Below are positions 13,331 to 57,688 of a DNA stretch of 60,000 nt, one piece after another. The notes beneath the pieces are model-generated. The model was not told the DNA's origin and ran no database searches. It was given only the letters and a program-made list of their open reading frames with translations. Both the position numbers and the translations under genes were made by a program. Within the stretch, counting starts at the first letter, position 1; the number at the start of each line of letters is the position of its first letter. This DNA comes from Botryllus schlosseri (Eukaryota). The stretch covers positions 32,676,001-32,736,000 of the forward strand of contig CM119371.1 in assembly GCA_051294905.1 (NCBI GenBank). The letters are read 5' to 3'.

Positions 13331-13744
13331 GTCGGTCTTTTTGTGGAAATGATCATAGGAGATCCACATAACGTTTTTATTTATTACACTGAAGATAATA
13401 TATGATTCCAAGTTCAACGTGTTTAACATACATTTTTAACAGATTGTCTTACCACATGAAACTTACTCTCCCTCCTGATACTCATCAGGGAAATCGTCAG
13501 CAACCGGAAGTGAATTGGATGGAACAATGTATCACCAAATATGAGGTCACATGCATGAAATTTCAAGGAATTGGGACTAAAAGACCGTTTAAGCTCAATG
13601 TACGGTTATTAGATAAAAGACGAAATCCTTTTGCTGGCACAAACTAGCTTAGCGTATTTTGACGAAAGTCGACTCATAGGAACAAAGAATAATGAGTGAC
13701 CAGCCTCTCGCGACAAGTGACGAATTCGACGAAATAGTAGTATG

Positions 13745-37384: not shown

Positions 37385-38963
37385 TCAATAGCGCTAGATG
37401 TCAATAGTTTCTAAGTGCTTGGTGCTCAGAATTTCACATCCCTTGGTGGATTTGAGGGGATTCCGGTATTCAGTATTCAGGCATTGTTAATATTTGGATT
37501 TACGGAATCAGTGCGTCGATACCATTTGATTGATGCTAGTTATTATAAATTCTCTGCTGTCCATGATGAATTGCGTTATCGAGGTGAGGCACGACTGGCA
37601 AATAACTTATACTCGTCCAGACGACAGGTGAGGTATGACCGTAACAAAACTTCGCCCATCCTCAAAAACGTTGGTCTTGGCCCCATATGATGATAAACCG
37701 AACATCAGAGGGGCTTCGCCCTCAGACCCCCTCAGGCTGCACGCTGTTTACTGCTACTTGTCAGCTACATTGGAGGCCGTTTACTGAGTCCGCCTTTCTG
37801 ACCTTAACGCCCTAAGCGCGAAAAATGTCTATAATTCATGATTGAATCCGTCAATGTGATCGGGCATTGCATATATATTGCTATCAATTTTTATCCTCTC
37901 TCTGCTCCCATAATCAGAGTTACAGGTAGAGCTGAGTGAGGTGTGTTTGAAAAGGTACGACCCACCACAATAATAATTGAACATCTGCAAGCGTATATCC
38001 GTGATCACGAACGAGATAGCACTTCCTCGGCCTCTCCACAAAATTTGGGTCTTGGGCTCCCCTAGGGTGATAAACCTACCCCAAATCACGTTGCTCGTTG
38101 TCCACGAAATCGGTCAATAAGATCGGGAATTGCATATATATTGCAATCAATTTCTTGTCCCCTCTGCTCACGTAAGGAGATTTACCGGTAGAGCTGACCG
38201 AGGTGTCTTTGAAACTGTATGGCCCGTTGGTATGACTCCGTATCATGATGTGATTTTGTGACGTCCTGCGTACCTGCGGGATGGTATTTGTCTTTTGAGG
38301 TTGGTTGCTAAGAACATTCAGCGGCAGTCATTTAGGTGCCTGTGGACAGTTAAAATATATGTATTTTGTGTATATAACGAAGTTTTCGGTCATCATATGG
38401 GTAGTCCTATTCGACCAAGGTTTTCTCGCTGCCGATCGTTTTGGCACACGTCTTGGTGTCGCATGTTACATGGCCTAAAACACTGGTTCTCAACCTTTTT
38501 TTCTTCGCGGACCGCTTTTGGACAACAACGGACCCGTTCAAAATTAGCTCAATTATCGCTCAACCGTCATCTATCTCGTGCAAATACTGATTGTAGGCTG
38601 GTGATAAACAGCCACAAAATGACTTTTCTTGAAAATAGCATCACAGTATATGTAGAAATTTGATATATTTCTATTAATTAGTAGCTAATTTTGCAGCTGT
38701 ATTTATTGTCTTAAAAATCCGTGACTTCGATTGGATATGAACGAGTGCCAAAAATCCATTGTAATATTAATGCGCAACGCTTTCGACGCCAGGATTTTGG
38801 TGTGTGTTTTTAATAAACATATCACGTCCAGCCTAGTCGTTCATATCTGTCATCTGAACTTGTTATTTAGTGGTTATATCACAGGAGTAAAGGGATTCCT
38901 TGGCGAGAGTAGTTATATAGATCGGTCGTGGTGTGCCATTGTCTCTTATGGGCGGGGTGGTGA

Positions 38964-39176
38964 GGTGCCGCGAAAACTCGTCCTGAACCGGTGACCCTTT
39001 CAGACCCCCCTTCCACCCGACCGGTGCCTTATGAGTATAGGGATCTCTCGACCGGTGCCGCGAAAACTCGTCTTGAACCGGTGACCCTTTTCGGTATAGC
39101 GATCACTCGACCGGTGCCTCGAAACTCGTCTTGAACCGGTGACCCTTTTCGGTATATGCATCTCTCGACCGGTGTT
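38964..39176. repeat. GC-rich terminal sub-repeats (mirror at 52680-52892)
   Basis: Three copies of ggtgcc(g)cgaaa(a)ctcgtc(c/t)tgaaccggtgacccttt plus repeated gaccggtg. Confidence 0.85.
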
Positions 39177-39449
39177 GAATATGTATCAAGTAAATAGTCA
39201 TGTGAATGAATCTTTGTTAATGTGTATATCGTGAAAACTCGTGGTCGTGACTCGCCTTTTTTGCTATAGGCGGTGGCGGTGATTCGCCTGTCGTGTATTC
39301 TTACGAGATCTGTGATGATTCGTCATGTGTTCTTATGGATGCGGTCGTGATTCGCACTTTCAACCATCTCTCGCACGGTGTTGAATAGTCACCAACAATA
39401 ACCGCGCAAACGGAAACGTGGCTTGCAAGAGGATTTACGCAGTGCGTGC

Positions 39450-40215
39450 GACAGACGGCGATTCGAATATCAACAATAGTCGCGTTCGCAAACTAACACT
39501 TCAAAAAGATGTGAAATATTTGTAAAATCCTACGATCGCTCACAAGATACCACTTCCGGCATATCGATCTATCACTCAATACACAACCGAAGTTGAATTG
39601 TAATTGAATGCGTAAATTTATCACCTCGACATCAAAATTCGAAAACAACAACTTGACGCTTTATGTTCTCACTCTAATTTCATGATAAGTGTAATAAGTG
39701 CCGAATAACAGATACATCACCGGCGAGACTTGAATACCAACAAATTGTCACTTATTTCTATTCTAGCCGTAATCCTTTGTGAAGTTAACGCTTATTCAAA
39801 AAGGTGTGGAATAGTTTGCAAAACCCCGCGATCACTGACAAGATAATGTCTCGGACATACCCATCTTTCACGACTTGGTGTCATAACCATACCGATCGCT
39901 CACGCGGTGAAATTTTAGTAATCAGTTTGTCACAGAACTTGATTTCGCTGGTAAGATTTAACAAGTAACGAATAACAGACCGCGGTAACTTGAATAGCGA
40001 CAAATTGTCACTTATTTCCGCTCTAACCCTAATCCTTTGTGAAGAGAACGCTTATTCAAAAGGTTGTGATATAATTTTAAAATCCAACGACCACTCACCG
40101 GATAATGCTTCAGACATATAGCAATCTCTCATACCCGCTCACAAGGTAATATTTCGGTAATAAGTTTGTCACAGAGCCGTCGCAGACGGTGATTCGAAAA
40201 CCAACAATTTGTCAC
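39450..40215. repeat. Imperfect ~260-bp subterminal direct repeats (mirror ~51640-52405)
   Basis: aaattgtcacttatttc...taatcctttgtgaag..aacgcttattcaaaa at ~39742 and ~40002; weaker copies at ~39460 and ~40190. Confidence 0.7.
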
Positions 40216-41419
40216 TCGCCCGCGATCGCTATATGTTTCACGCCTCCAGAATAGTGGCTGACTTTAGTTGCGTGATAAGATCCATGAAAATATTCAATCA
40301 ATGTGTTAGTTTATCAACTTGAAATGAAACTCACTACACAAATCAAGTCGATCCGTATCAGAATGTTTTAAATCGGTACAACTCTAATCCTTTGACAAAT
40401 CCTTAACGCGTTTTTGTTGAATCGAACGTAACCCGAATATTACTGACGCCGACTTTCAGCCGCATCGAATTATTCGCACATTCCGCGCCACTGTTTTCAC
40501 ACTTATAGAATCAATACCAACTATAACTCTACAAGAATCAAGAATCACAAGTACGTGCATTACACAGTTATTGTCTTTATCAACTTGAAATCAAACACTT
40601 AACAAAAACACGAAACTAATCATTTGGCAACTCTAACATTACCCAAAAATTCCAGTATTGTTGATTGAAAATCCTTGAGTCATTATTATCAAAAATGTTA
40701 TAGTACCGCATCAGAATCCATTCGCGGGATGTACTAAAGGTAAATCCAGATAATCCAAAATGAAATATTTGAACTTTGACAAACATGACTACCAACTTTG
40801 ATCCAGCCACATTTCAAGATCATACTTTGAAACAATCCTTGAAACTTACAACTCTATTCACGACTGAGTTTTCCGTTTATCAAATAGAGTTTCAGTAAAT
40901 ACTATCGCGATATTTTAATGTGTTACTACACACAATAGAATCATTCAATGAAATAACACCTGTTGTAAATATTTCTAACTTGACAACCACTTGTGCATAC
41001 CGCGATCGACTTGTGACGCGATGAGTTAAATCGGAATATTTCAATCTATTTGTCGAAACCTTGAACAAACTATCGGGGTATTTTTTGTTGTAATTGAGTG
41101 TACGGAAATAGTATTACGTCTCGACATCTCGCCATCTCACCATATTCAATGAGTCAACCACGAAAACGTTGTCAAGTAAATCCGTTTGTAACTTACCCAA
41201 CCAACTCAAACAGTACCAGTATGAAAAACAGCCAAACATACACGAATCCATACAATCACTAAAACCTAAAGTCCATAACAAGCTTGGTTGTATTCATATC
41301 CCTACACATCTTTTTTTTTATTCAGCTTGAAAAGTCGTTACTATTCTGTAAGATAGAGGAATTACTACGCGGTATATTCTGCAAGACAAACTAATTACTA
41401 CTCGGTATATTTTTTAAGA

Positions 41420-43400
41420 CAAAAGTAATTACTTCTCAGTATCGGCGACTTGAGATTAACATAATATGTTTGAGTATACGAGATTTGAAAGTCCGACCAA
41501 TGTAGTTGAGAATTCATTTCTTACATTCGAACGATGGTGTTATATTCAAAGTTATCATGCTGTGAACATAAGGATTGACACATTGATTTGACATATGAGA
41601 TTTGTAATAGTTGATCATTACTTTATTATTAAATTATTTGTGTTAATTAGACCCGGCGTTGTGGTAAATGTTATGACAGCAACAAACTTTTCAGTACCAA
41701 TGTTATTAACATATTGAGTTGTAAACTATGTGTGTCTAAAATGTTCTCGATTGGAAAATTATTCAGCCTTGGTACAAACCACGCAGCGTATTGTGGATAT
41801 CAGGAAATATTTTACAAATGTAATTGTCTCCACTAACCAAGACTAAAGATGAAACAACAATTTCCTTTGTTGAACAATAACCGGTACAATACTTTATCAT
41901 CGTAATCAGCAGTGAGAATTGAAACACTTTCACACATTATCCGGTGTCAAGATATCACGCTAGGTGAATTGACATACCGCCGCTTGATTAATACCTAATC
42001 CATTCGCACCATTTCACATACTTTGATCATTACAAAAGTAAATTGGGATATGTTTACTAGATGCATTCAATTCAGCTAGAAATGTCTGGTGCGCAACAAT
42101 CGTAATATCAAGGAAGTACTTGCTACACTGTAATTCACTAAACGTGTTTTGTATTGTTGTTCGTTTGTAGTATTGATTGTTTTTGAACCCTCAAATAATA
42201 ATTCCCGACATGAAACCAAGCCGCTGAAAGTCGTTACCATCACAACGAAACAATTTGTACGATGTTTGCCAAACGTATCCTATAGTTAGGTGTACTAGAA
42301 TTATTTGTGTTACGCATACACCGACAAAGAAATCGGGAATTTTTCCGTTGCATTCGCTAAAGTAAATGTCATCACAATACACTGTCACTAAAAGACGTTA
42401 CTCGCATGTAATTGAATCCCTAACAATTAACTAGCTAAATCAAACCCCTAAGAAATTTCAGTCACTCATTGGGTATGAAACAGCGTCGCTTAATCGGTCT
42501 ATATCGTTTTTCTAAAGTTAAATCATATCCATCCAATAGAAAACAATTTTCACTAGCTTGGTAATGAAACCGAAGTCTTCATTCAATATTTTGTTTGTGT
42601 CAAATACTTTACAATAAACACACTGGAGTGGTTGAGCTTTACATCATCAAGCTGTCATCTGTAAATCGAGATCACATCCGACTTGTAACTGTATCGTTTA
42701 CCTAACCGAGTTGTATGCGCAGTTTGATATTTTTGTCATTTAGTGATTGCTGAACATACCAAACGATACACATTCACTTCCGAAATACTGCGTTGATCTC
42801 AATTCCCTTTGTCGTGATAATCGAAGTACATTTGTCTATTCATGACACATGAAAATATTCGATATTCTCATGCTACGAACATACGCAATGATTGGTGACG
42901 CTTTCAAACTGTCTCGATATCACAAGAACTTTATTGTCTGAATGGGTGTTCATGTATCTTAATAATCAAATAGTTCAACACAGAACTAGCACTAACAGAA
43001 ACATCAGAGTTGTTTACACAAAACTTTGTATGTGTACAGTATGCGAATACCATGTGTAAGTCCAGCACAATTGTGGTATCCATCCGAGTTTAGTCAACAC
43101 AAATTTATTACAACGGAGCCACGTAAACTTTCGTGAAAGAAAAGCATACTCACTTCCAGAGGGTTATGTCAACACCATAGCAGTTCCCCAACAACAAAGT
43201 ACATATGTTTCTAGCCACGGTCCTTACATCTTTCACATAGATCAATCTACTTTGCTAACGAAAAGTGCTGAGTCATCACATGATCGCTCTCACAACAAAA
43301 CAGCTAGTAGATATTATCATTCAAAATATTCCTAACCCTTTACACACCAGTGACAAATCATACAACGAATATGCTTTGCGGGTTGAATTGTTGTTCAGTG
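41420..43400 (-). pseudogene. Highly decayed protein-primed family B DNA polymerase remnant (left-arm copy)
   Basis: Mirror of 48450-50430. Confidence 0.6.
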
Positions 43401-44104
43401 TCAAGTCTACCTGTTGAAACGTACATTAAACAGCGCAATCCAATTAAACCCACGAATCTATTTTCATTTCGTCACATACAGAAAAATAAATTTTCTTTCT
43501 CCAACACATACTTGTAACCAATCGCTTTCATTAAACACACAACACCATAAAAGTATTTAATTTCTACAACATAGACATTCCGATGTAGTCAAGAAATATT
43601 TTTATTAATCAAAATCATCGATTGCTGTTCACGGCGTTAGTGTGTGCATGTCATACCTGTGGGCCCCGTATTAAAATGGACACGACACTACTGACTGTAA
43701 GGAGATAGAAGTCTATCACATCGATTTACATGTGGTCTTCGCTACGGTTTCAAAAAAACGAATCATCTCTTTTGCATTGATCTAGACCGAGCAAGTTAGT
43801 TAATGGCCATGATTGTGTTTGTCATATGCGAATGATAGGGTTACTGTCAAATCTACATACAACAATCTTCTGACGATCATAATAGCAATTTCATTTTCCG
43901 CCCCTTCATAATTGTACAACTCGGTAACTACGTTTAACAAGACCAATCACACTACCGGCGTTGAACACAAGATACCTACCCAAGTAAAAATATCATACGG
44001 GTTTGGACAACTGACGTTTACCTGTGTAAAATTATCATTTTCACTTGGAGGTCCACCGTTACCTAACTAAAATACTATTGTCCTTTGGAGATTTATCGTT
44101 TACC

Positions 44105-44605
44105 CAGTGTAACAATCCCCTTTTCACTTGGAAATCTATTTTTGGCCTGAATAACAAACCCCTTTTCACTTGGAAATCTATTTTTGCCCTGGATAACAAA
44201 CCTTTTTCATTTGGAAATATATTTTTTCTCTTGGTAACAAACCTTTTTCACTTGGAAATATATTTTTTCTCTGGGTAACAAACCTTTTTCACTTGGAAAT
44301 ATATTTTTTCTCTTGGTAACAAACCTTTTTCATTGGGAAATATATTTTTTCTCTTGGTAATAAACCTTTTTCACTTAGGAATATATTTTTTCTCTGGTTA
44401 ACAATCCTTTTTCACTTGGAAATATATTTTTTCTCTGGGTAACAAACCTTTTTCACTTGGAAATATATTTTTTCCCCGGGTAACAAACCTTTTTCCCTGA
44501 GCAACAAACCTTTTTCACTTGGAAATATATTTTTTCCCCCAGGTAACAAACCTTTTTCGCTTGGAAATATATTTTTCCCTGGGTTACAAACCTTTTTCAC
44601 TTGGT
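44105..44605. repeat. ~41-bp tandem array, ~13 units (mirror 47251-47751)
   Basis: aacaaacctttttcacttggaaatatattttttctc(t/tg)ggt; cores at 44201, 44242, 44283, 44324, 44365, 44406, 44447, 44488, half-unit 44509, 44551, 44591. Confidence 0.95.
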
Positions 44606-44799
44606 GGTCCGTCGTTTACCTGAGTAAAAATATCATTTTCCTTTGGGGGATCTGGCGTTTACCCAGTGTAACAATACATTTTCTCTTGGTCATCTAGCTT
44701 TTCCTAGAGTAACAAAACCATTTTCATTTTGAAATCTGACAAACACACCTGACAATTTGATATTTTTGTATATTGTTACAACGGATAGCGACAAAATAT

Positions 44800-45995
44800 A
44801 CACCAACAACAACTCCAATACATTTGTGTAATCGCATATTCACTTGTGCTGATGCAACCCATCAATATCATGGGTTACCCGCATGCAATATCCTCTTGCA
44901 CACCGAAATGCATGTTTTGGAAACTTGGACAATAGGCTTCGATAGTTCTGTGATGTCCGGGTTCGTGCTTTGGATTTTCCAGAGTCAAAATGTCTGAATA
45001 AAACACCTCCTCGACGACGGTTGGTATGTGGATAACGGTGTTCGGAAAACGGTTGGATTTATGTCACCCATCGCGATAACAATTCCAGGTCGAGTTTTCC
45101 TCCGGCATGTTTACTATATTGTGTCTTTATTGGTCAATGTATGTCTCGACATTCAGTTTGAAATCGGAAATGATAAAGTATGTAACCGGATCCGGATATC
45201 AACTCTGAATCGATAAACCAATGAACAATATTCAAAGTAAACATGTTACATTCCACGAAAAAATACCATCCAGACATACGTCGCGCTTGTTTGCCCACAA
45301 CAGTATACGCGTAAATGGAGGTGTGTGACATTGCATGCAATGTGTTGGTATACAAACATCGGGGAGTAAGCCTTCGATCCACAGACATTATCATAGCCGG
45401 TAATTTTGATGCAGATCGAATGTCACCCGATAACAATACCAATAAGCCACATTGCAATGACTCTGAGTCCGCGCTATTACATCGATATTTCGACACCGTT
45501 CACTGATTTATTCGATGGTGTTATCGTGTTGTAACATTACAAGATAGTCATGACCCTATCTGTAGACGGACCACCCAGATCAATTGGATACATCGGTCAA
45601 TATCCATCGTGTTGTCGACACCGAAGTTTTCTGCTGAGACTACAGCGTTTGATCCAGGTGAACTATCAAAGTACGGTGCTCGAAATGATTGCGATCAGGC
45701 TTTCAGTCACGATCAATGGATGTCGCTACTCCCACATAACGACTCCGGATAAATATCGTGCAAATGTCGGACTGATATTGTGATCCAAAAAGGTATGTTT
45801 CTGTGGAATGAAGACTGCAATCGTACACCACAATAGAACACTACCTCGTGATTTCACACGCAATCATAAAACACACTTTCGTAAGGGTCTAGCTCGTCCG
45901 GTTTCGAAACGGTCGTCACCACAAGAGATCGGGGTTGGTCTCGTCATATCGGAGCATTTTGAAACGACATCGTCACAAGTCTATTGACGTCGATT
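44800..45995 (+). pseudogene. Decayed Polinton major capsid protein remnant; runs across the arm/spacer junction
   Basis: Ordered fragments in shifting frames resembling Polinton MCP: CDI..GVSLR..MSPDNNTN..ALLHR, YIGQYPS, LSVTINGCRYS..TPD, GMFLWNEDCN, TLPRDFT..HFRKG, SILKRHRHKSIDVD. Recognised by eye only. Confidence 0.55.
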
Positions 45996-46340
45996 CAGTT
46001 GGTCATGTCAATCCGTTTCACAATCCACCATTTTTCAACCCCCCGCACCATAGTGTTACGACACAGACAAGAAGCGTCGGTGGAAATAATAAAACACGGA
46101 AAGCACACTTTGGTGTTATTTGACATGGATTTTACACCCGACGAACCTCACATTCGAGCGATGCATTGGAATTACGCTTGTATTATTGATGTAGAAGGAA
46201 CAGAAATGTATCGATTTATTGGTTTCGTACGTATCCAACAAAAATCTGGGTATATGATTGTGCATGGTTCGCATATTTGACTGTGAACGCTCTATTGGTA
46301 TATGCTGTATAGTTCACTTTCACCGTCGTGCGAATAACCC
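45984..46340 (+). pseudogene. Decayed adenain-like cysteine protease remnant in the spacer
   Basis: MTSIQL.. start, TPDEPH..HW..IIDVEG (cf. NTDPxxxPGxHW..D..G) and frameshifted GICCIVHFHRRA (cf. CGxYCxxFLxxR); lies directly after the MCP-like remnant. Confidence 0.55.
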
Positions 46341-46386
46341 ATGTTACGGCTCGGTGTTTGTGTGTCTGTATGTCACGCTTCAGATT

Positions 46387-49300
46387 GACTCAGAGTCATT
46401 GCAATGTGGCTTATTGGTATTGTTATCGGGTGACATTCGATCTGCATCAAAATTACCGGCTATGATAATGTCTGTGGATCGAAGGCTTACTCCCCGATGT
46501 TTGTATACCAACACATTGCATGCAATGTCACACACCTCCATTTACGCGTATACTGTTGTGGGCAAACAAGCGCGACGTATGTCTGGATGGTATTTTTTCG
46601 TGGAATGTAACATGTTTACTTTGAATATTGTTCATTGGTTTATCGATTCAGAGTTGATATCCGGATCCGGTTACATACTTTATCATTTCCGATTTCAAAC
46701 TGAATGTCGAGACATACATTGACCAATAAAGACACAATATAGTAAACATGCCGGAGGAAAACTCGACCTGGAATTGTTATCGCGATGGGTGACATAAATC
46801 CAACCGTTTTCCGAACACCGTTATCCACATACCAACCGTCGTCGAGGAGGTGTTTTATTCAGACATTTTGACTCTGGAAAATCCAAAGCACGAACCCGGA
46901 CATCACAGAACTATCGAAGCCTATTGTCCAAGTTTCCAAAACATGCATTTCGGTGTGCAAGAGGATATTGCATGCGGGTAACCCATGATATTGATGGGTT
47001 GCATCAGCACAAGTGAATATGCGATTACACAAATGTATTGGAGTTGTTGTTGGTGTATATTTTGTCGCTATCCGTTGTAACAATATACAAAAATATCAAA
47101 TTGTCAGGTGTGTTTGTCAGATTTCAAAATGAAAATGGTTTTGTTACTCTAGGAAAAGCTAGATGACCAAGAGAAAATGTATTGTTACACTGGGTAAACG
47201 CCAGATCCCCCAAAGGAAAATGATATTTTTACTCAGGTAAACGACGGACCACCAAGTGAAAAAGGTTTGTAACCCAGGGAAAAATATATTTCCAAGCGAA
47301 AAAGGTTTGTTACCTGGGGGAAAAAATATATTTCCAAGTGAAAAAGGTTTGTTGCTCAGGGAAAAAGGTTTGTTACCCGGGGAAAAAATATATTTCCAAG
47401 TGAAAAAGGTTTGTTACCCAGAGAAAAAATATATTTCCAAGTGAAAAAGGATTGTTAACCAGAGAAAAAATATATTCCCAAGTGAAAAAGGTTTATTACC
47501 AAGAGAAAAAATATATTTCCCAATGAAAAAGGTTTGTTACCAAGAGAAAAAATATATTTCCAAGTGAAAAAGGTTTGTTACCCAGAGAAAAAATATATTT
47601 CCAAGTGAAAAAGGTTTGTTACCAAGAGAAAAAATATATTTCCAAATGAAAAAGGTTTGTTATCCAGGGCAAAAATAGATTTCCAAGTGAAAAGGGGTTT
47701 GTTATTCAGGCCAAAAATAGATTTCCAAGTGAAAAGGGGATTGTTACACTGGGTAAACGATAAATCTCCAAAGGACAATGGTATTTTAGTTAGGTAACGG
47801 TGGACCTCCAAGTGAAAATGATAATTTTACACAGGTAAACGTCAGTTGTCCAAACCCGTATGATATTTTTACTTGGGTAGGTATCTTGTGTTCAACGCCG
47901 GTAGTGTGATTGGTCTTGTTAAACGTAGTTACCGAGTTGTACAATTATGAAGGGGCGGAAAATGAAATTGCTATTATGATCGTCAGAAGATTGTTGTATG
48001 TAGATTTGACAGTAACCCTATCATTCGCATATGACAAACACAATCATGGCCATTAACTAACTTGCTCGGTCTAGATCAATGCAAAAGAGATGATTCGTTT
48101 TTTTGAAACCGTAGCGAAGACCACATGTAAATCGATGTGATAGACTTCTATCTCCTTACAGTCAGTCGTGTCGTGTCCATTTTAATACGGGGCCCACAGG
48201 TATGACATGCACACACTAACGCCGTGAACAGCAATCGATGATTTTGATTAATAAAAATATTTCTTGACTACATCGGAATGTCTATGTTGTAGAAATTAAA
48301 TACTTTTATGGTGTTGTGTGTTTAATGAAAGCGATTGGTTACAAGTATGTGTTGGAGAAAGAAAATTTATTTTTCTGTATGTGACGAAATGAAAATAGAT
48401 TCGTGGGTTTAATTGGATTGCGCTGTTTAATGTACGTTTCAACAGGTAGACTTGACACTGAACAACAATTCAACCCGCAAAGCATATTCGTTGTATGATT
48501 TGTCACTGGTGTGTAAAGGGTTAGGAATATTTTGAATGATAATATCTACTAGCTGTTTTGTTGTGAGAGCGATCATGTGATGACTCAGCACTTTTCGTTA
48601 GCAAAGTAGATTGATCTATGTGAAAGATGTAAGGACCGTGGCTAGAAACATATGTACTTTGTTGTTGGGGAACTGCTATGGTGTTGACATAACCCTCTGG
48701 AAGTGAGTATGCTTTTCTTTCACGAAAGTTTACGTGGCTCCGTTGTAATAAATTTGTGTTGACTAAACTCGGATGGATACCACAATTGTGCTGGACTTAC
48801 ACATGGTATTCGCATACTGTACACATACAAAGTTTTGTGTAAACAACTCTGATGTTTCTGTTAGTGCTAGTTCTGTGTTGAACTATTTGATTATTAAGAT
48901 ACATGAACACCCATTCAGACAATAAAGTTCTTGTGATATCGAGACAGTTTGAAAGCGTCACCAATCATTGCGTATGTTCGTAGCATGAGAATATCGAATA
49001 TTTTCATGTGTCATGAATAGACAAATGTACTTCGATTATCACGACAAAGGGAATTGAGATCAACGCAGTATTTCGGAAGTGAATGTGTATCGTTTGGTAT
49101 GTTCAGCAATCACTAAATGACAAAAATATCAAACTGCGCATACAACTCGGTTAGGTAAACGATACAGTTACAAGTCGGATGTGATCTCGATTTACAGATG
49201 ACAGCTTGATGATGTAAAGCTCAACCACTCCAGTGTGTTTATTGTAAAGTATTTGACACAAACAAAATATTGAATGAAGACTTCGGTTTCATTACCAAGC

Positions 49301-52300
49301 TAGTGAAAATTGTTTTCTATTGGATGGATATGATTTAACTTTAGAAAAACGATATAGACCGATTAAGCGACGCTGTTTCATACCCAATGAGTGACTGAAA
49401 TTTCTTAGGGGTTTGATTTAGCTAGTTAATTGTTAGGGATTCAATTACATGCGAGTAACGTCTTTTAGTGACAGTGTATTGTGATGACATTTACTTTAGC
49501 GAATGCAACGGAAAAATTCCCGATTTCTTTGTCGATGTATGCGTAACACAAATAATTCTAGTACACCTAACTATAGGATACGTTTGGCAAACATCGTACA
49601 AATTGTTTCGTTGTGATGGTAACGACTTTCAGCGGCTTGGTTTCATGTCGGGAATTATTATTTGAGGGTTCAAAAACAATCAATACTACAAACGAACAAC
49701 AATACAAAACACGTTTAGTGAATTACAGTGTAGCAAGTACTTCCTTGATATTACGATTGTTGCGCACCAGACATTTCTAGCTGAATTGAATGCATCTAGT
49801 AAACATATCCCAATTTACTTTTGTAATGATCAAAGTATGTGAAATGGTGCGAATGGATTAGGTATTAATCAAGCGGCGGTATGTCAATTCACCTAGCGTG
49901 ATATCTTGACACCGGATAATGTGTGAAAGTGTTTCAATTCTCACTGCTGATTACGATGATAAAGTATTGTACCGGTTATTGTTCAACAAAGGAAATTGTT
50001 GTTTCATCTTTAGTCTTGGTTAGTGGAGACAATTACATTTGTAAAATATTTCCTGATATCCACAATACGCTGCGTGGTTTGTACCAAGGCTGAATAATTT
50101 TCCAATCGAGAACATTTTAGACACACATAGTTTACAACTCAATATGTTAATAACATTGGTACTGAAAAGTTTGTTGCTGTCATAACATTTACCACAACGC
50201 CGGGTCTAATTAACACAAATAATTTAATAATAAAGTAATGATCAACTATTACAAATCTCATATGTCAAATCAATGTGTCAATCCTTATGTTCACAGCATG
50301 ATAACTTTGAATATAACACCATCGTTCGAATGTAAGAAATGAATTCTCAACTACATTGGTCGGACATTCAAATCTCGTATACTCAAACATATTATGTTAA
50401 TCTCAAGTCGCCGATACTGAGAAGTAATTACTTTTGTCTTAAAAAATATACCGAGTAGTAATTAGTTTGTCTTGCAGAATATACCGCGTAGTAATTCCTC
50501 TATCTTACAGAATAGTAACGACTTTTCAAGCTGAATAAAAAAAAAGATGTGTAGGGATATGAATACAACCAAGCTTGTTATGGACTTTAGGTTTTAGTGA
50601 TTGTATGGATTCGTGTATGTTTGGCTGTTTTTCATACTGGTACTGTTTGAGTTGGTTGGGTAAGTTACAAACGGATTTACTTGACAACGTTTTCGTGGTT
50701 GACTCATTGAATATGGTGAGATGGCGAGATGTCGAGACGTAATACTATTTCCGTACACTCAATTACAACAAAAAATACCCCGATAGTTTGTTCAAGGTTT
50801 CGACAAATAGATTGAAATATTCCGATTTAACTCATCGCGTCACAAGTCGATCGCGGTATGCACAAGTGGTTGTCAAGTTAGAAATATTTACAACAGGTGT
50901 TATTTCATTGAATGATTCTATTGTGTGTAGTAACACATTAAAATATCGCGATAGTATTTACTGAAACTCTATTTGATAAACGGAAAACTCAGTCGTGAAT
51001 AGAGTTGTAAGTTTCAAGGATTGTTTCAAAGTATGATCTTGAAATGTGGCTGGATCAAAGTTGGTAGTCATGTTTGTCAAAGTTCAAATATTTCATTTTG
51101 GATTATCTGGATTTACCTTTAGTACATCCCGCGAATGGATTCTGATGCGGTACTATAACATTTTTGATAATAATGACTCAAGGATTTTCAATCAACAATA
51201 CTGGAATTTTTGGGTAATGTTAGAGTTGCCAAATGATTAGTTTCGTGTTTTTGTTAAGTGTTTGATTTCAAGTTGATAAAGACAATAACTGTGTAATGCA
51301 CGTACTTGTGATTCTTGATTCTTGTAGAGTTATAGTTGGTATTGATTCTATAAGTGTGAAAACAGTGGCGCGGAATGTGCGAATAATTCGATGCGGCTGA
51401 AAGTCGGCGTCAGTAATATTCGGGTTACGTTCGATTCAACAAAAACGCGTTAAGGATTTGTCAAAGGATTAGAGTTGTACCGATTTAAAACATTCTGATA
51501 CGGATCGACTTGATTTGTGTAGTGAGTTTCATTTCAAGTTGATAAACTAACACATTGATTGAATATTTTCATGGATCTTATCACGCAACTAAAGTCAGCC
51601 ACTATTCTGGAGGCGTGAAACATATAGCGATCGCGGGCGAGTGACAAATTGTTGGTTTTCGAATCACCGTCTGCGACGGCTCTGTGACAAACTTATTACC
51701 GAAATATTACCTTGTGAGCGGGTATGAGAGATTGCTATATGTCTGAAGCATTATCCGGTGAGTGGTCGTTGGATTTTAAAATTATATCACAACCTTTTGA
51801 ATAAGCGTTCTCTTCACAAAGGATTAGGGTTAGAGCGGAAATAAGTGACAATTTGTCGCTATTCAAGTTACCGCGGTCTGTTATTCGTTACTTGTTAAAT
51901 CTTACCAGCGAAATCAAGTTCTGTGACAAACTGATTACTAAAATTTCACCGCGTGAGCGATCGGTATGGTTATGACACCAAGTCGTGAAAGATGGGTATG
52001 TCCGAGACATTATCTTGTCAGTGATCGCGGGGTTTTGCAAACTATTCCACACCTTTTTGAATAAGCGTTAACTTCACAAAGGATTACGGCTAGAATAGAA
52101 ATAAGTGACAATTTGTTGGTATTCAAGTCTCGCCGGTGATGTATCTGTTATTCGGCACTTATTACACTTATCATGAAATTAGAGTGAGAACATAAAGCGT
52201 CAAGTTGTTGTTTTCGAATTTTGATGTCGAGGTGATAAATTTACGCATTCAATTACAATTCAACTTCGGTTGTGTATTGAGTGATAGATCGATATGCCGG

Positions 52301-52948
52301 AAGTGGTATCTTGTGAGCGATCGTAGGATTTTACAAATATTTCACATCTTTTTGAAGTGTTAGTTTGCGAACGCGACTATTGTTGATATTCGAATCGCCG
52401 TCTGTCGCACGCACTGCGTAAATCCTCTTGCAAGCCACGTTTCCGTTTGCGCGGTTATTGTTGGTGACTATTCAACACCGTGCGAGAGATGGTTGAAAGT
52501 GCGAATCACGACCGCATCCATAAGAACACATGACGAATCATCACAGATCTCGTAAGAATACACGACAGGCGAATCACCGCCACCGCCTATAGCAAAAAAG
52601 GCGAGTCACGACCACGAGTTTTCACGATATACACATTAACAAAGATTCATTCACATGACTATTTACTTGATACATATTCAACACCGGTCGAGAGATGCAT
52701 ATACCGAAAAGGGTCACCGGTTCAAGACGAGTTTCGAGGCACCGGTCGAGTGATCGCTATACCGAAAAGGGTCACCGGTTCAAGACGAGTTTTCGCGGCA
52801 CCGGTCGAGAGATCCCTATACTCATAAGGCACCGGTCGGGTGGAAGGGGGGTCTGAAAGGGTCACCGGTTCAGGACGAGTTTTCGCGGCACCTCACCACC
52901 CCGCCCATAAGAGACAATGGCACACCACGACCGATCTATATAACTACT
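46387..52948 (-). repeat. Right arm (6,562 bp) of giant inverted repeat
   Basis: Reverse complement of 38908-45469; begins gactcagagtcattgcaat at 46387. Confidence 0.98.
48450..50430 (+). pseudogene. Highly decayed protein-primed family B DNA polymerase remnant (right-arm copy)
   Basis: Colinear motif ghosts across frames: YAFLS..KFVL..GWIPQL..FV*TTLMFL (~48705, ExoII region), YKSDV (~49170, ExoIII), CKVFDTN..GFI, FLLDGYD (~49320), DFFV(G/D)VC, IGYVWQTSY (~49575, cf. YVDFTSLYP), VAVITFTT (~50175), NEF..G..N..Y (~50340). Many stops and deletions. Confidence 0.6.
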
Positions 52949-54049
52949 GGCGAGGTTTCAATTCCTTCATTGGGACAGATTAGGAAAAGAAATGAGGAAG
53001 TTATATTTCAAACGACTGTTTGCTAATTTGATGAGACTTTTCGACAACTCCAAATCCAGAATGTTACCTCTAACATTTCATTTTTTCACAGACCCCAACA
53101 AAACATTTGTAAACAGTAGGATGTGTCATCTCAGACGACCATTTTAATGATGTGAGTCCTAAATTTTTAGCAATTATGAAGCGAAACCGTCATGCCTTTC
53201 CTAACATAAAAAACAGGTTATCATTCACGTTACAAATTTAGAGGTTTCGCGGACCCCCTGAAAACGCTTCGTTGACTCCCGGATGAGGAATGCCACTGAT
53301 CTAAACCTTCATATGTCTTGGTGCACCGTGGTGCGGTAATGGCCAACGCCGATGTGCCCATTTCTATAAATCTTGCGTATTTTTTCTTGGGGGAAGAGTA
53401 CCCCAAAATTAAGATATTTGGCAACTGGAAATCGCGAAAATCAAAATTGTGTTCTGTGCATCCTTCAATAATTTGAAATCTTTTTATATCTGAAAACTCC
53501 TCCAATTATCAATGACTTTAGACAAACACACATTGAGCAAGCACGTGCATTGCAGTTTTGCCCCAAAGCCACCAATGGCATGTCGAATTTTACTATGTCT
53601 TAAATTAGAACTTCTATGACTACGTTTCTGTGACTTCACTCCACGCTCAGATCAGATAAGTGTTCTTGAGATGGTCTATCCACAATGTCTGAATCTCAGA
53701 AACTTCGGATATTCAATTCTAAACCTGCTAACAGAACACAGATCTGTAAAAATATCAGTAATAATTACCCACGTTACAAGAACTGCTGCAGAGACTTTAT
53801 TAAGCGTCTAACCGTCGAAGCGGCTAGACGCGAAAGACACAGGAGCAACACAAGACATCACTACTATAACAGGTAGCGGTATAGAGCACGACTGCCACAT
53901 ATCGACTGCAATTGTACATGTGAATATTCCTATGCATTTTATGAAACGTCCATGAATTTACGTCAGGAAATATTGGAGAACAAAATCGACTAATTGGACG
54001 GAGATGAAAAAAAAACGTTTTTCAGATACTTGAATGTATTACATGTTAA

Positions 54050-55023
54050 TGAATTCACCATTGGAGTACCCCTTCGCAGTATATGTTGTCCCCCATGCAT
54101 TTCATCCATGATTGTCGCTGCCAGTATGCACATTCATATGTCGCTGGATGTGATTCTTCTGAGTAAACGCCCTCTCACATAAATCACATTTATGATTTTT
54201 GATGCCAGCATGTAATACATATGAAGCTTTAGGTGACTATTCTGAGAAAATGCTTTTCCACACACATCACATTCATGATTTTTGTCACCAGCCTGCATAT
54301 ACATATAGATCTTGAGCTCACGCTTTCCAAAAATTGCTTTAACACATACATCACATTCTCACTTTGTGATGCCTGCGTGTATATCCATATGAGGCTTGAG
54401 TCGACACTTATGACTGAATGCTTTTCCACATATATCGCATTCATGACTTTTGATGCATCGACGTTTTTTTTCATATGTAGCATGAGGCTATTCTTGTGAG
54501 TGAATTCTACCCCACATACTTCAAATTTATGTTTTTTGATGACAGCATATATCTTCATGTGAAGCCGGAGGTTATTCTTATGGGCGAATAACTGGCCACA
54601 TATATCACATTTAACACTTTTTCTGCAATCATGCGTATCCATACAACGACTGAGGTCAATTTTCTGAGTAAATGCTTTCCCACATACATCACATTGATGA
54701 TTTTTGATGCCATCATGCATATCCACATGACGACTGAGGTCATCCTTCCGAGTAAATGCCTTTCCACATAAATCAGATTCATGATTTTTAATGCCTGAAT
54801 GCATCTCCATATGAAGCTTTAGCACATTCTTCATATTGAATGGCTTACCACAAACATCACATTCGTGCTTTTAACACCAGCATGCATATCCATATGATAC
54901 TTGAGGACATGTTTATGAGTAAATGTTTTCCCATATACATCACATTCATGGTTTTTGTTGCCAGCATGCATATTCATATGAAACTTGAGGTCACCCTCTC
55001 GAGTAAATGCTCTCCCACATACA
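54050..55023 (-). pseudogene. Decayed continuation of the zinc-finger array of paralogue 2
   Basis: About ten further finger units in shifting frames, e.g. CDVCGRAFTREGDLKFHMNMH, HQCDVCGKAFTQKIDLSRC, with lost Cys/His ligands. Confidence 0.85.
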
Positions 55024-56508
55024 TCACATATCCATATTGTGTTTTTTAACACCAGCATGCATATCCATATGATACTTGAGGACATGTTTATGAGTAAATG
55101 TTTTCCCACATACATCACATTTTTGTCTTTTGTTGCCATTGTGCATATTCATATGTCGCCTGAGGACACCCTTCTCAGAAAATGCTTTCCCACATACATC
55201 ACATTCATGATTTTTGATGCCAGCATGCATATCAATATGACGTTTGATGTGACCATACTGAGTAAATACTTTTCCACATATATCACATTTATGTCTTTTG
55301 ATGCCAGTGTGCATATTCATATGTCGCGTGAAGACACCCTTCTCAGAAAATGCTTTCCCACATACATAACATTCATGATTTTTGATGCCAGCGTGCATGT
55401 CCATATGAAGCTTGAGGGTAGTCTTCCACGCGAATGCTTTATCACATACATGGCATTTATGATTTTGGATGCCAGTATGCATATTCATATGCCGCTTGAG
55501 GTAACGCATCCTAGGAAATGCTTTCCCACATACAGTACACCCATGATTTTCAATGCCACAATGGACATCCATATGACTCTTGAGGCCGCCCTTCGTGGTA
55601 AATGCTTTCCCGCATACATCACACCCATGATTTTTGATGCCAGCATGCATATTCATATGATGCTTGAGGTCACCCTTCCGAGTAAATGCTTTTCCACATA
55701 CATCACATCCGTGATCTTTGATACCAGCATGCATATCCATATGACGTTTGATGTGACCATAATGAGTAAATGCTTTTCCACATACATCACATTCATGATT
55801 TTTGATGTCAGCGTGCATGTCCATATGAAGCTTGAGGTTAGTCTTCCACACGAATGCTTTATCACATACATGGCATTTATGATTTTGGATGCCAGTATGC
55901 ATATTCATATGCAGCTTGAGGTAACCCATCCTAGTAAATGCTTTCCCACATACAGTACACCAATGATTTTCAATGCCACAATGCACATTCATATGACTCT
56001 TGAGGCCGCCCTTCGTGGTAAATGCTTTCCCGCATACACCGCATGTATGATTTTGGATGCCAGTATGAATATTCATATGCCGCTTGAGGTATCCCATCCT
56101 AGTAAATGCTTTCCCACATACAGTACACCCATGATTTTCAATGCCAAAATGCACATTCATATGACTCTTGAGGACGCCCTTCTTGGTAAATGCTTTCCCG
56201 CATACATCACATTCATGATTTCTGATGCTAGCATGCATATCCATATGACCCTTGAGGTGCGCCTTCCCAGTAAATGCTTTCTCACATACTTCACATTTCT
56301 GATTTTTGATGCCATCACGAATGTCTATATGACATCTGAGGTTATTCTTTAGAGTGAATGCTCTGCCACATACATCATTTATATGATTTTTCATGGGAAC
56401 ACGCACGTGCGTATGAAGCTTGTCAATTTTCTGAGAAGACTCTTTCCCGGAGATATCGTTTGGGCGATCTTTCAAGCCCTGATCAACAGTTGATTTTTCA
56501 GATTCCAT
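55024..56508 (-). CDS. Tandem C2H2 zinc-finger protein, 494 aa (15 intact fingers + 1 degenerate), paralogue 2; truncated by a frameshift
   Basis: 28-aa periodic CxxC-x12-HxxxH with H(A/T)GIKNHEC linkers; short N-terminus with no recognisable KRAB/ZAD/SCAN domain. Confidence 0.85.
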   Translation of the reverse strand: MESEKSTVDQGLKDRPNDISGKESSQKIDKLHTHVRVPMKNHINDVCGRAFTLKNNLRCHIDIRDGIKNQKCEVCEKAFTGKAHLKGHMDMHASIRNHECDVCGKAFTKKGVLKSHMNVHFGIENHGCTVCGKAFTRMGYLKRHMNIHTGIQNHTCGVCGKAFTTKGGLKSHMNVHCGIENHWCTVCGKAFTRMGYLKLHMNMHTGIQNHKCHVCDKAFVWKTNLKLHMDMHADIKNHECDVCGKAFTHYGHIKRHMDMHAGIKDHGCDVCGKAFTRKGDLKHHMNMHAGIKNHGCDVCGKAFTTKGGLKSHMDVHCGIENHGCTVCGKAFPRMRYLKRHMNMHTGIQNHKCHVCDKAFAWKTTLKLHMDMHAGIKNHECYVCGKAFSEKGVFTRHMNMHTGIKRHKCDICGKVFTQYGHIKRHIDMHAGIKNHECDVCGKAFSEKGVLRRHMNMHNGNKRQKCDVCGKTFTHKHVLKYHMDMHAGVKKHNMDM

Positions 56509-57688
56509 GTCGGTCTTTTTGTTGAAATGATCGTAGGTGTTCCACAGAACACTTTTATTTATTACACTGAAGAAAATATATATGATTCAAAGTTCAACGT
56601 GTTTAACATACATTTTTAACAGATTGGCCTAGCACATGAAACTAACTCTCCCTGATACTCATCAGGGGAAATCGTCAGCAACCGAAAGAGAATTGGAAAG
56701 AACAATGTATCACCAAATATGAGGTCACATGCATGAACTATCAAGGAATTGGGACGAAAAGACCGCTTAAGCTCAATGTACGGTTTTTAGATAAAAGACG
56801 AACTCCTTTTGCTGGCACTAACTAGCTTGGCGTATTTTGACGAAAGTCGACTCATAGGCACACATATTAATGCGTGACCGGCCTCTCGCGACAAGGGACG
56901 AATTCGAGGAAAAAGCAGTATGATACCAATTGCCTAATTGCATATGATCTCACAAACATTAAAGAATTGGCATGTCAAAAGAACGGAGTTTAAATTTTGA
57001 ACCTCAATGTCCCGCGTGTACGCTGGTGCAGACAATCACCACAACAGAGTCAATTCAACTACTGAAAAAGGCTCAATACGGTTACCCTATTTTCGTAGAC
57101 AAAAATCTGCACGCTCACTATATATTGTCAATATGACGTCACACCAGCAATGCTTTGCCTAACCTTTACATTCCGGAGTCTATTTCTTAACACAGTGTAG
57201 TGAATTCATTAGGACTAGGCTATTGGTCACCTCTTGTCAGAGCCCCAAAACGATCACCATATGGGCCGAACTCGATACGCCAAATGTAGAGAATGATCAC
57301 TAGCACCAGTATAACCACCCAATTTCACTCTGGTAACCATATAACGAACAGTTCGGAGATATTGACACTTCATTTCTTAATGTTTTCGAATATACGGAGA
57401 GAAGTGCACTCGCGTATCTTTGTTACCTACTGACCATCTACAATCCTATATGGGTGTTACGTTCTCAGTCGCAGAAACGCTTGCCAGTTGCAAGAGTCAC
57501 AACATCAATCTACGGCGAAACTTTTCTTCATCAGCCGCCATCCTGTGGAACAAAACCGTTTTATTTACACGAGCGTTCGAACTACAGTAGTGTTTATTCT
57601 GCATTACAACTATATGCACTAGGGGTGGCCTGGACCCCTGAAAGGTTCGGGTTCGTGTGAACACGCACCTTTTTGATAGGTTTTGTGT

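Follow-up and report, generated by a model that had tools for sequence, protein, structure and literature searches.

What kind of element is a 14-kb insertion that consists almost entirely of two inverted copies of one sequence, how does it spread, and why are its two halves so nearly the same? The insertion lies in a 60,000-nt stretch of the Botryllus schlosseri genome (the window). It probably belongs to a large satellite family of gene-less, non-autonomous Polintons (Mavericks), palindromes of 13–15 kb that are moved in trans. Its ends are those of autonomous Polintons, it is inserted with a 6-bp target-site duplication (TSD), it has no genes, and both of its arms evolve in lock-step.

The palindrome and its boundaries

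A repeat search resolves the insertion into two arms of 6,562 nt and a spacer of 917 nt, so that 93% of the element is inverted repeat. Scripted pairing of arm with arm gives exactly five mismatches (41490/50366, 42321/49535, 43689/48167, 44076/47780 and 44377/47479) and no indels, and the pairing ends at the arm-spacer borders. Both procedures agree with the arm and spacer lengths, the five mismatches and the lack of indels given in the earlier note. The AGTAGT...ACTACT ends and the perfect 6-bp TSD, GGCGAG, that it had described are present at the element borders, and its claim of two identical ends per element is supported. A 6.5-kb inverted repeat is not attainable by chance. Tandem arrays account for ~0.7 kb of each 6.56-kb arm, the remainder being complex sequence (Table 1).

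Table 1. Features of the palindromic element, in window positions
Feature	Positions	Strand	Basis or remark
TSD GGCGAG, left copy	38902..38907	.	sequence inspection
Left arm, 6,562 nt, non-coding	38908..45469	+	repeat search, ORF list, Pfam
Terminal motif AGTAGT-N6-GATCGGTC; likely integrase and replication-origin end, judged from sequence	38908..38927	+	common with autonomous Polintons
Subterminal tandem repeat, 58-bp unit, 2.4 copies	39035..39174	+	mirror 52682-52821
64-bp block, ~97% identity to autonomous Polinton terminal inverted repeat; candidate cis-acting site	39172..39235	+	mirror 52621-52684
Weak (72%) similarity to autonomous Polinton subterminal region	40452..40703	+	mirror 51153-51404
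33-bp tandem repeat	41342..41433	+	mirror 50414-50514
Tandem array, 41/42-bp units, ~12 units	44109..44604	+	mirror 47252-47747
Inner-arm 16-mer, family marker	44625..44640	+	identical across 18/18 aligned arms; mirror 47216-47231
Unique spacer (palindrome loop), 917 bp, without recognisable gene	45470..46386	.	
Right arm, reverse complement of left arm	46387..52948	-	repeat search, scripted pairing
TSD GGCGAG, right copy	52949..52954	.	sequence inspection

That the palindrome arose as an assembly artefact is very unlikely. The same build, with an individual perfect 6-bp TSD each time, recurs in eight other copies on five contigs, and in sequencing runs from three samples the k-mer depth of the family is 20-100x that of the flanks. 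Logan contigs from three DNA samples are mostly 70-150 bases over the element and none bridges an arm, the spacer or an empty site, so that they give the cis arrangement of the arms no direct support; apparent skip joints in these data have sides of only ~20 letters and are not relied on.

No ATG-initiated open reading frame (ORF) of at least 80 amino acids lies wholly within the left arm, and none of the 23 ORFs of at least 65 amino acids in arm and spacer has a Pfam match. Positions 38000-47000 gave no Rfam family, and the terminal 17-mer no match among IMG/VR viral contigs. One RNA run, of which ~6% was read, is uninformative on expression: 78 reads were placed, 76 of them fitting in part only.

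Ends held in common with autonomous Polintons

The same genome contains an autonomous Polinton of 18.3 kb (L039/L040) with Pfam matches to the protein-primed polymerase pPolB (PF03175, 32.6 bits), a retroviral-type integrase (rve, 60.1 bits), a chromodomain (36.5 bits) and a P-loop ATPase. It has a TSD of 6 bp (GCCGAG) and a terminal inverted repeat of 0.44 kb. Clusters similar to its 432-aa ORF have a double-jelly-roll capsid domain in 14-30% of their members, which is no more than a lead. Genome-wide, each of the 38 pPolB matches that were scored extends over the full length, and 34 of these are free of stops. With at least 38 full-length pPolB genes present, the 0 matches from a genome profile search with PF03175 are a false negative and no evidence of absence.

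The affiliation of the ends with Polintons, proposed in the earlier note, is borne out. The autonomous copy has the same terminal motif, and the terminal ~30 bp and the 64-bp subterminal block (97%) are common to it and the palindrome. An arm of another palindromic copy (C1d) matches the autonomous copy's unique right subterminal region over 949 bp at 89.5%, and the arms of one palindromic copy contain a stretch whose translation is 87% identical to a small ORF in the autonomous copy. The check suggested in the earlier note, comparison with autonomous Polintons of the species, gave a divided answer: the outer ends are related, the resemblance being confined to the outer ~0.5-1.8 kb of the arm, but no genes are in common and the inner ~4.7 kb of the arm has no similarity to the one autonomous copy by sensitive blastn, tblastx or tblastn. 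The arms encode no pPolB, that of the autonomous copy giving no tblastn or tblastx match in them, and no rve integrase by the same searches and Pfam; nor did tblastx and tblastn against the autonomous copy find any Polinton gene or gene remnant there. The comparisons drew on whole or partial sequences of 12 palindromic copies and of a single autonomous one. Its end sequence, present also in an autonomous Polinton of this genome, marks the palindrome as a non-autonomous Polinton derivative.

A family whose arms change in lock-step

Genome-wide, the terminal motif has 1157 forward and 1154 reverse sites (control 2 and 5), and the inner-arm motif at 830 and 879 (control 0 and 1). A spacer 25-mer, with 173 and 130 sites, indicates ~300 copies of this spacer type (controls across the motif counts were 0-5). 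By simple arithmetic, ~850 palindromic copies of ~14 kb make up roughly 2% of the assembly. The spacer in the window has 98% identity to those of four other copies, which measure 922 bp, and 89% identity to that of a fifth. All ten copies that were checked have AGTAGT..ACTACT ends and perfect 6-bp TSDs, all different; the search for copies with differing TSDs advised in the earlier note thus succeeded. Near-perfect long palindromes are usually thought fragile, and here hundreds with 6.5-kb arms are tolerated in one animal genome. An annotator might take such a family for assembly artefacts or segmental inversions.

Copies are mostly 12.9-15.5 kb long. On C1, after 7 of 100 listed terminal-motif sites (variant, on a single strand) had been left out, a convergent pair of inner motifs was found in 22 of the 34 adjacent terminal pairs listed, and 18 of these 22 span 12.9-15.5 kb. 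The median copy length is 13.8 kb, as against 17.3-18.3 kb for autonomous elements, and is 0.76 of the 18.26-kb autonomous Polinton. Arms are 6.31-6.76 kb long despite 15-25% unalignable columns between lineages. Shorter relatives, of 3.3, 8.5, 9.6 and 11.0 kb, also occur.

Within each of nine copies (9/9) the arms are 99.88-99.98% identical; identity between copies is 67-99.7%. Among four close copies, mirrored changes amount to 20-154 substitutions and 73-570 indel columns per copy pair. Unmirrored changes in the same set come to 1-8 substitutions per copy and, for each copy pair, 0-3 indel columns. Six copies have duplicated inner motifs, mirrored from arm to arm, and both arms have equal bit scores in 11 of 14 further inverted pairs. 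In disrupted copies, arm-arm substitutions reach 2.3% and are spread unevenly, inner arm parts being still 99.9% alike and outer parts 1.7-2.3% different. CpG decay was considered as the cause of the faster outer-arm divergence in old copies and rejected, CpG transitions being a minority (e.g. 10/38). Young copies have 30 of their 40 arm-arm mismatches in the inner half.

Explanations, and comparison with known systems

How would a gene-less palindrome spread with its arms in step? Common ends and equal TSD length suggest that the retroviral-type integrase of autonomous Polintons inserts it in trans, and the Polinton protein-primed polymerase may replicate it from its two identical ends. In this scheme the single strand displaced during synthesis would snap back on itself as a 6.5-kb hairpin, and either hairpin repair or chromosomal arm-to-arm gene conversion would carry each change over to the opposite arm. 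More speculatively, length may be held near three quarters of that of the helper by the need to fill a Polinton capsid. Mobilisation, replication and packaging of the palindromes are steps that we infer from sequence. Counting against snap-back, chromosomal gene conversion alone could account for the lock-step; counting against a packaging rule, the family could simply owe its narrow length range to a 14-kb ancestor, and it has the shorter relatives noted above. Neither mismatch gradient, in disrupted or in young copies, is predicted by the snap-back model.

Put together in their strongest form, these steps would make the palindromes natural 'gutless' Polinton mini-genomes: inverted end dimers with stuffer, replicated by the helper polymerase from two identical protein-primed origins, with arms mirrored by snap-back, a lower capsid limit of ~3/4 of helper length, and a satellite that out-amplifies its helper in the germline. 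The full combination is offered tentatively, as a possibility with the balance against it. If true, it would be the first sequence-level readout of Polinton replication and packaging. The debate on Polinton lifestyle is described, in a 2016 account (PMC5499653), as awaiting experimental work on just these two processes. To that debate the family contributes candidates for the cis sequences sufficient for spread, namely the ends and the conserved 64-bp block. A single-stranded fold-back stage is suggested as well, and more faintly a rule of size.

A more economical reading dispenses with free replication. The elements would be cut and pasted by the Polinton integrase, and their arms homogenised in place by gene conversion. 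Long inverted repeats with a short spacer, such as sex-chromosome palindromes and plastid inverted repeats, undergo frequent arm-to-arm conversion. Mirrored changes fit this equally well as snap-back, and the patchiness of the disrupted copies suggests local conversion. However, ~850 palindromes as against fewer autonomous copies need net amplification, and conversion would less readily transfer the mirrored indels of 450-570 columns. Further, the perfect TSDs of all ten copies suggest young insertions, and arms decay once a copy is disrupted. In-place homogenisation on its own is therefore unlikely, though it deserves to be kept in mind.

Much less credible is membership of a different superfamily, as a foldback transposon (FB/MULE-like or P/Galileo-like) with ends that only resemble those of Polintons. 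Such an origin would suit the great length of the inverted arms and the tandem arrays inside them. The TSD is 9 bp in FB and 7 bp in Galileo, whereas it is 6 bp, not 7-9 bp, in all ten copies; matches to autonomous Polintons of this genome cover the ~30-bp ends, the 64-bp block and, for one copy, 949 bp; and no element with a transposase of a non-Polinton kind is associated with the family copies examined. A hAT gene does occur in the C16 copy and, being in one arm only, is read as a nested insertion.

According to the earlier note, the element in the window itself was born when an inverted copy of one Polinton half took the place of the other half. Its ends and TSD are of Polinton type, but its arms hold no Polinton coding remnant, and the build, ~920-bp spacer included, is common to hundreds of copies differing at up to 1/3 of aligned positions. 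Since the palindromic layout was inherited by all these diverged copies, any copy-back event belongs at the root of the family; for the element in the window the proposal is highly improbable, and it is tenable only for the family founder. The accompanying analogy to copy-back, defective genomes is a reasonable model for how the family may have originated and may replicate. Equally improbable is a host-serving hairpin locus, comparable to Mu killer of maize, in which long double-stranded RNA from arm transcripts would silence Polintons: transcription of a perfect 6.5-kb inverted repeat would indeed yield such RNA, and one copy's arms do have the 87% protein-level stretch of the small autonomous ORF, but the window's arms have only non-coding end sequence in common with the autonomous copy, and hundreds of mobile copies with their own TSDs are parasite-like.

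The preferred reading, a non-autonomous Polinton satellite moved in trans, can be set beside three known systems; the literature search, which did not extend to Repbase or paper supplements, found no description of a palindromic or gene-less Polinton derivative. With autonomous Polintons the palindromes have in common the 6-bp TSD, AG..CT ends, terminal inverted repeats and, in the same genome, end sequence. They differ in being palindromes that lack polymerase, integrase, capsid and any other gene. The Polinton described from Anolis is 17,487 bp long with a 6-bp TSD and a 584-bp terminal inverted repeat (PMC3014272), and butterfly polintons are described with gene-bearing terminal inverted repeats of ~2 kb (bioRxiv 10.1101/2025.02.07.637071). 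An arm of 6.56 kb thus contrasts with 0.44 kb in the local autonomous element and 0.6-2 kb in those accounts.

Foldback transposons, of which Drosophila FB and Galileo (PMC3573991) are examples, likewise have very long, non-coding inverted arms with tandem repeats inside and a short middle. The palindromes differ from them in the 6-bp TSD, in arms that are several-fold longer, apparently also in the mostly complex sequence of these arms, and in ends of Polinton rather than MULE or P type.

Helper-dependent ('gutless') and defective adenovirus genomes are reported to be packaged as inverted dimers (PMC4189039, citing Parks and Graham 1997). They are products of the laboratory or of lytic infection and are not integrated, whereas the palindromes are germline insertions with TSDs. 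The likeness is in the architecture: both are gene-less, with viral ends and stuffer in a head-to-head palindrome whose ends are identical. It extends to size, gutless adenovirus genomes being ~75% or more of helper length (PMC4189039) and the palindrome family 0.76.

Build and extent of the palindromic family

The window element is a palindrome: two inverted arms of equal length around a 917-nt spacer. A repeat search returns the arms as one dominant pair, direct comparison finds five mismatches and no indel between them, and their pairing stops abruptly at the spacer border. The ends are AGTAGT...ACTACT with GGCGAG on either side, and all the numbers that the earlier note gave for the element are correct. 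Apart from the repeats in the table, the arms are complex sequence. Neither window arm fully contains an ATG-started ORF of at least 80 aa, and the longest stop-to-stop frames of the element (121–154 aa) span the arm–spacer borders. None of the 23 frames of at least 65 aa in window arm and spacer matched Pfam at E up to 0.01, and Rfam gave no match over window 38000–47000.

C2H2 zinc-finger genes or exons, with up to 12 finger pairs, are present on both flanks of the insertion, so that the element sits in a zinc-finger gene neighbourhood. A contig from a run on another sample connects window 38835 and 53004 with 29 other letters in between; this may be a haplotype that lacks the element and has a small rearrangement, or be due to chance.

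The assembly comprises 495.5 Mb in 219 contigs, with the window on contig C1. The terminal 593 bp of the element have at least 106 matches in it, many as inverted pairs 13–14.5 kb apart, and nine such pairs were retrieved as half-elements. Eight give a single inverted match (6,312–6,762 bp, 99.75–99.98%); in the remaining one, L019/L020, the match is in pieces at 93.6–99.7%. Five copies have spacers of 921–922 bp; three more have spacers of 983, 1,494 and 332 bp. The search with the termini for copies having other 6-bp duplications, proposed earlier, succeeded: in all 10 copies checked (the window copy, the eight retrieved palindromes and an 8.5-kb relative) the ends are AGTAGT and the duplication is perfect, each one different.

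Genome-wide counts of three family markers are tabulated with their controls; most sites of the inner-arm 16-mer form convergent pairs, 2.5–2.9 kb apart. By arithmetic, some 850 copies of about 14 kb would account for roughly 2% of the assembly. On C1, the part listed has 100 terminal sites, of which seven belonging to a one-stranded variant were left out; the other 93 yield 34 adjacent plus/minus pairs, with a convergent inner-motif pair inside 22, one motif inside 2 and none inside 10. Eighteen of the 22 measure 12.9–15.5 kb (median 13.8 kb); the remaining four are larger and lopsided, as nested insertions would make them. In 7 of the 22 the distance from end to inner motif is the same on both sides, to the base. 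Among the sites listed, the variant left out, AGTAGT TTTGGTC GATCGCTC, recurs on one strand only, without a partner, and may belong to another repeat. At one place on C1 three terminal-motif pairs are each nested within the next, which indicates that family members insert into each other.

Features of the window element, its family and the autonomous Polinton L039/L040 (G000, the same assembly; L numbers, fetched pieces)
Feature	Location	Length	Detail
Left arm	window 38908-45469	6,562 nt
Right arm, inverted	window 46387-52948	6,562 nt
Repeat	window arms	58 bp	subterminal
Repeat	window arms	33 bp
Array	window arms	41/42 bp
C2H2 zinc-finger gene/exon	window 12626-13435 (-)
C2H2 zinc-finger gene/exon	window 54232-56586 (-)
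Terminal motif AGTAGT-N5-7-GATCGSTC	genome-wide		forward 1157, reverse 1154; control 2 / 5
Inner-arm 16-mer	genome-wide	16 nt	forward 830, reverse 879; control 0 / 1
25-mer of window spacer, <=1 mismatch	genome-wide	25 nt	forward 173, reverse 130; control 0 / 0
Nested terminal-motif pairs	G000:C1:16768420-16810257
Single-arm relative L023	G000:C1:29831467-29840982	8.5 kb	duplication GTCGTA
Palindrome with hAT gene	G000:C16:20295870-20314344	18.5 kb
hAT-type transposase	L030:805-2676 (-)	624 aa	hAT dimerisation domain, zf-C2H2_12
Autonomous Polinton L039/L040	G000:C1:5923671-5942133	18.3 kb	duplication GCCGAG
pPolB	L039/L040	1214-aa frame	PF03175, 32.6 bits (cut-off 25.8)
rve integrase + chromodomain	L039/L040	359 aa	60.1 and 36.5 bits
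P-loop ATPase	L039/L040	215 aa	weak Pox_A32 match, under cut-off
Candidate capsid-like protein	L039/L040	432-aa frame	Atlas cluster resemblance

Relation to autonomous Polintons

L039/L040 is a complete Polinton with the same terminal motif pair as the window element and inverted ends of about 443 bp that are 99.5% identical. A double-jelly-roll-like domain is found in 14–30% of members of the Atlas clusters that its 432-aa frame resembles (score 0.98), a lead only as to capsid identity; its further open frames have no Pfam match. Protein search of the genome with its polymerase gave 438 first-look candidates. The best 38, which were scored, are all full length at 92–100% identity, 34 are without a stop, and two fall within 17.3-kb and 20.9-kb terminal pairs of C1. 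In view of these matches, the empty result of a Pfam-based genome search for the polymerase was a false negative.

About the first 30 bp are common to the window element and L039/L040, and a 64-bp block (window 39172–39235) is about 97% identical. The first ~480 bp are patchily similar, and at arm 1545–1796 similarity is 72%. In C1d, another palindromic copy, 949 bp of arm match the unique right subterminal region of L039/L040 at 89.5%, taking in a 121-aa frame (87%); apart from this frame, the Polinton proteins of L039/L040 have no match in any arm. The end-proximal sequence held in common marks the outer arm, on present alignments, as a descendant of Polinton ends. The inner ~4.7 kb of the arm gave no match to L039/L040.

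The earlier note saw here one half of a Polinton replaced by an inverted copy of the other. Derivation from Polintons is upheld by the shared ends, the 64-bp block and the 6-bp duplication; a one-off copy-back of an individual element is not borne out, since hundreds of copies have the same build. The window element is probably a non-autonomous palindromic Polinton derivative belonging to a very large family.

How the arms stay alike

Within each of nine copies the arms are 99.88–99.98% identical, as against 67–99.7% between copies (for the window copy and the other eight, at most 88.7%). Arms are mosaics, 90–95% blocks alternating with non-aligning stretches, and nevertheless measure 6.31–6.76 kb. 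Between the window copy and one lineage the spacers are 98% identical but the arms only ~89%, a discrepancy suggestive of recombination between lineages. Pairs among four close copies differ by 20–154 substitutions and 73–570 indel columns present on both arms; unmirrored are only 1–8 substitutions per copy and 0–3 indel columns per pair. In six copies the inner motif is duplicated in mirror fashion, at the same spacing, on both arms. Such mirroring of substitutions, indels and duplications is the mark, judged from sequence, of changes that start on one arm and are then copied to the other. A 1,053-bp block of the window arm gave 40 of 40 scored matches at 97–100%; these make 14 further inverted pairs, 11 with equal score on both arms.

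Two mechanisms fit this symmetry. Protein-primed strand-displacement replication of a palindrome would displace a strand that must snap back, forming a hairpin of 6.5 kb closed by a 0.9-kb loop, and mismatch or loop repair in the stem would mirror each change on both arms. The scheme builds on the panhandle proposed for adenovirus ends and on the racket-shaped single strand that reportedly figures in the 2006 model of Kapitonov and Jurka. Arm-to-arm gene conversion in the chromosome is the other. In copies disrupted by insertions the arms differ by 0.1–2.3% substitutions, so symmetry decays after the structure is broken. The decay is uneven in three of them, with the outer parts diverged most, and CpG transitions account for only a minority of this. 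In nine young copies the gradient is opposite (30 of 40 arm–arm mismatches are in the inner half), and these opposite gradients keep chromosomal gene conversion viable beside snap-back replication. One palindromic copy, on C16, contains a hAT-type transposase gene inside one arm, and its arms have drifted to 95.5–99.9% identity.

Length and comparison with known systems

Short derivatives are few (3 of the 34 C1 pairs listed are under 12 kb), a scarcity that is unusual for a gene-less DNA transposon. L023 consists of one arm and a short piece of the other, with inverted ends of only 1,639 bp, so that it represents a deletion product or the monomer form of the palindrome. The median palindrome is 0.76–0.80 of the 17.3–18.3-kb autonomous elements. 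Gene-less adenovirus vector genomes of less than about 75% of wild-type length rearrange, and 15-kb constructs were packaged as direct and inverted dimers (PMC4189039). This parallel in length ratio is no more than suggestive of a packaging-type size rule; inheritance from a 14-kb founder is a simple alternative. For the palindromes we infer the steps of replication, symmetrisation and packaging.

In the papers searched, outside Repbase and supplements, no account was found of a palindromic Polinton derivative that lacks genes, and the exact phrases non-autonomous Polinton/Maverick turned up in one paper, for Tlr1; the available part of a giant-transposon review (PMC6431247) does not mention palindromic Polintons. 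The present analysis adds a link by sequence to autonomous Polintons, and figures for copy number, spacer class and length ratio. Among published Polintons, inverted ends are 584 bp in a lizard (PMC3014272) and about 2 kb in butterflies, where they carry capsid and protease genes (bioRxiv 10.1101/2025.02.07.637071).
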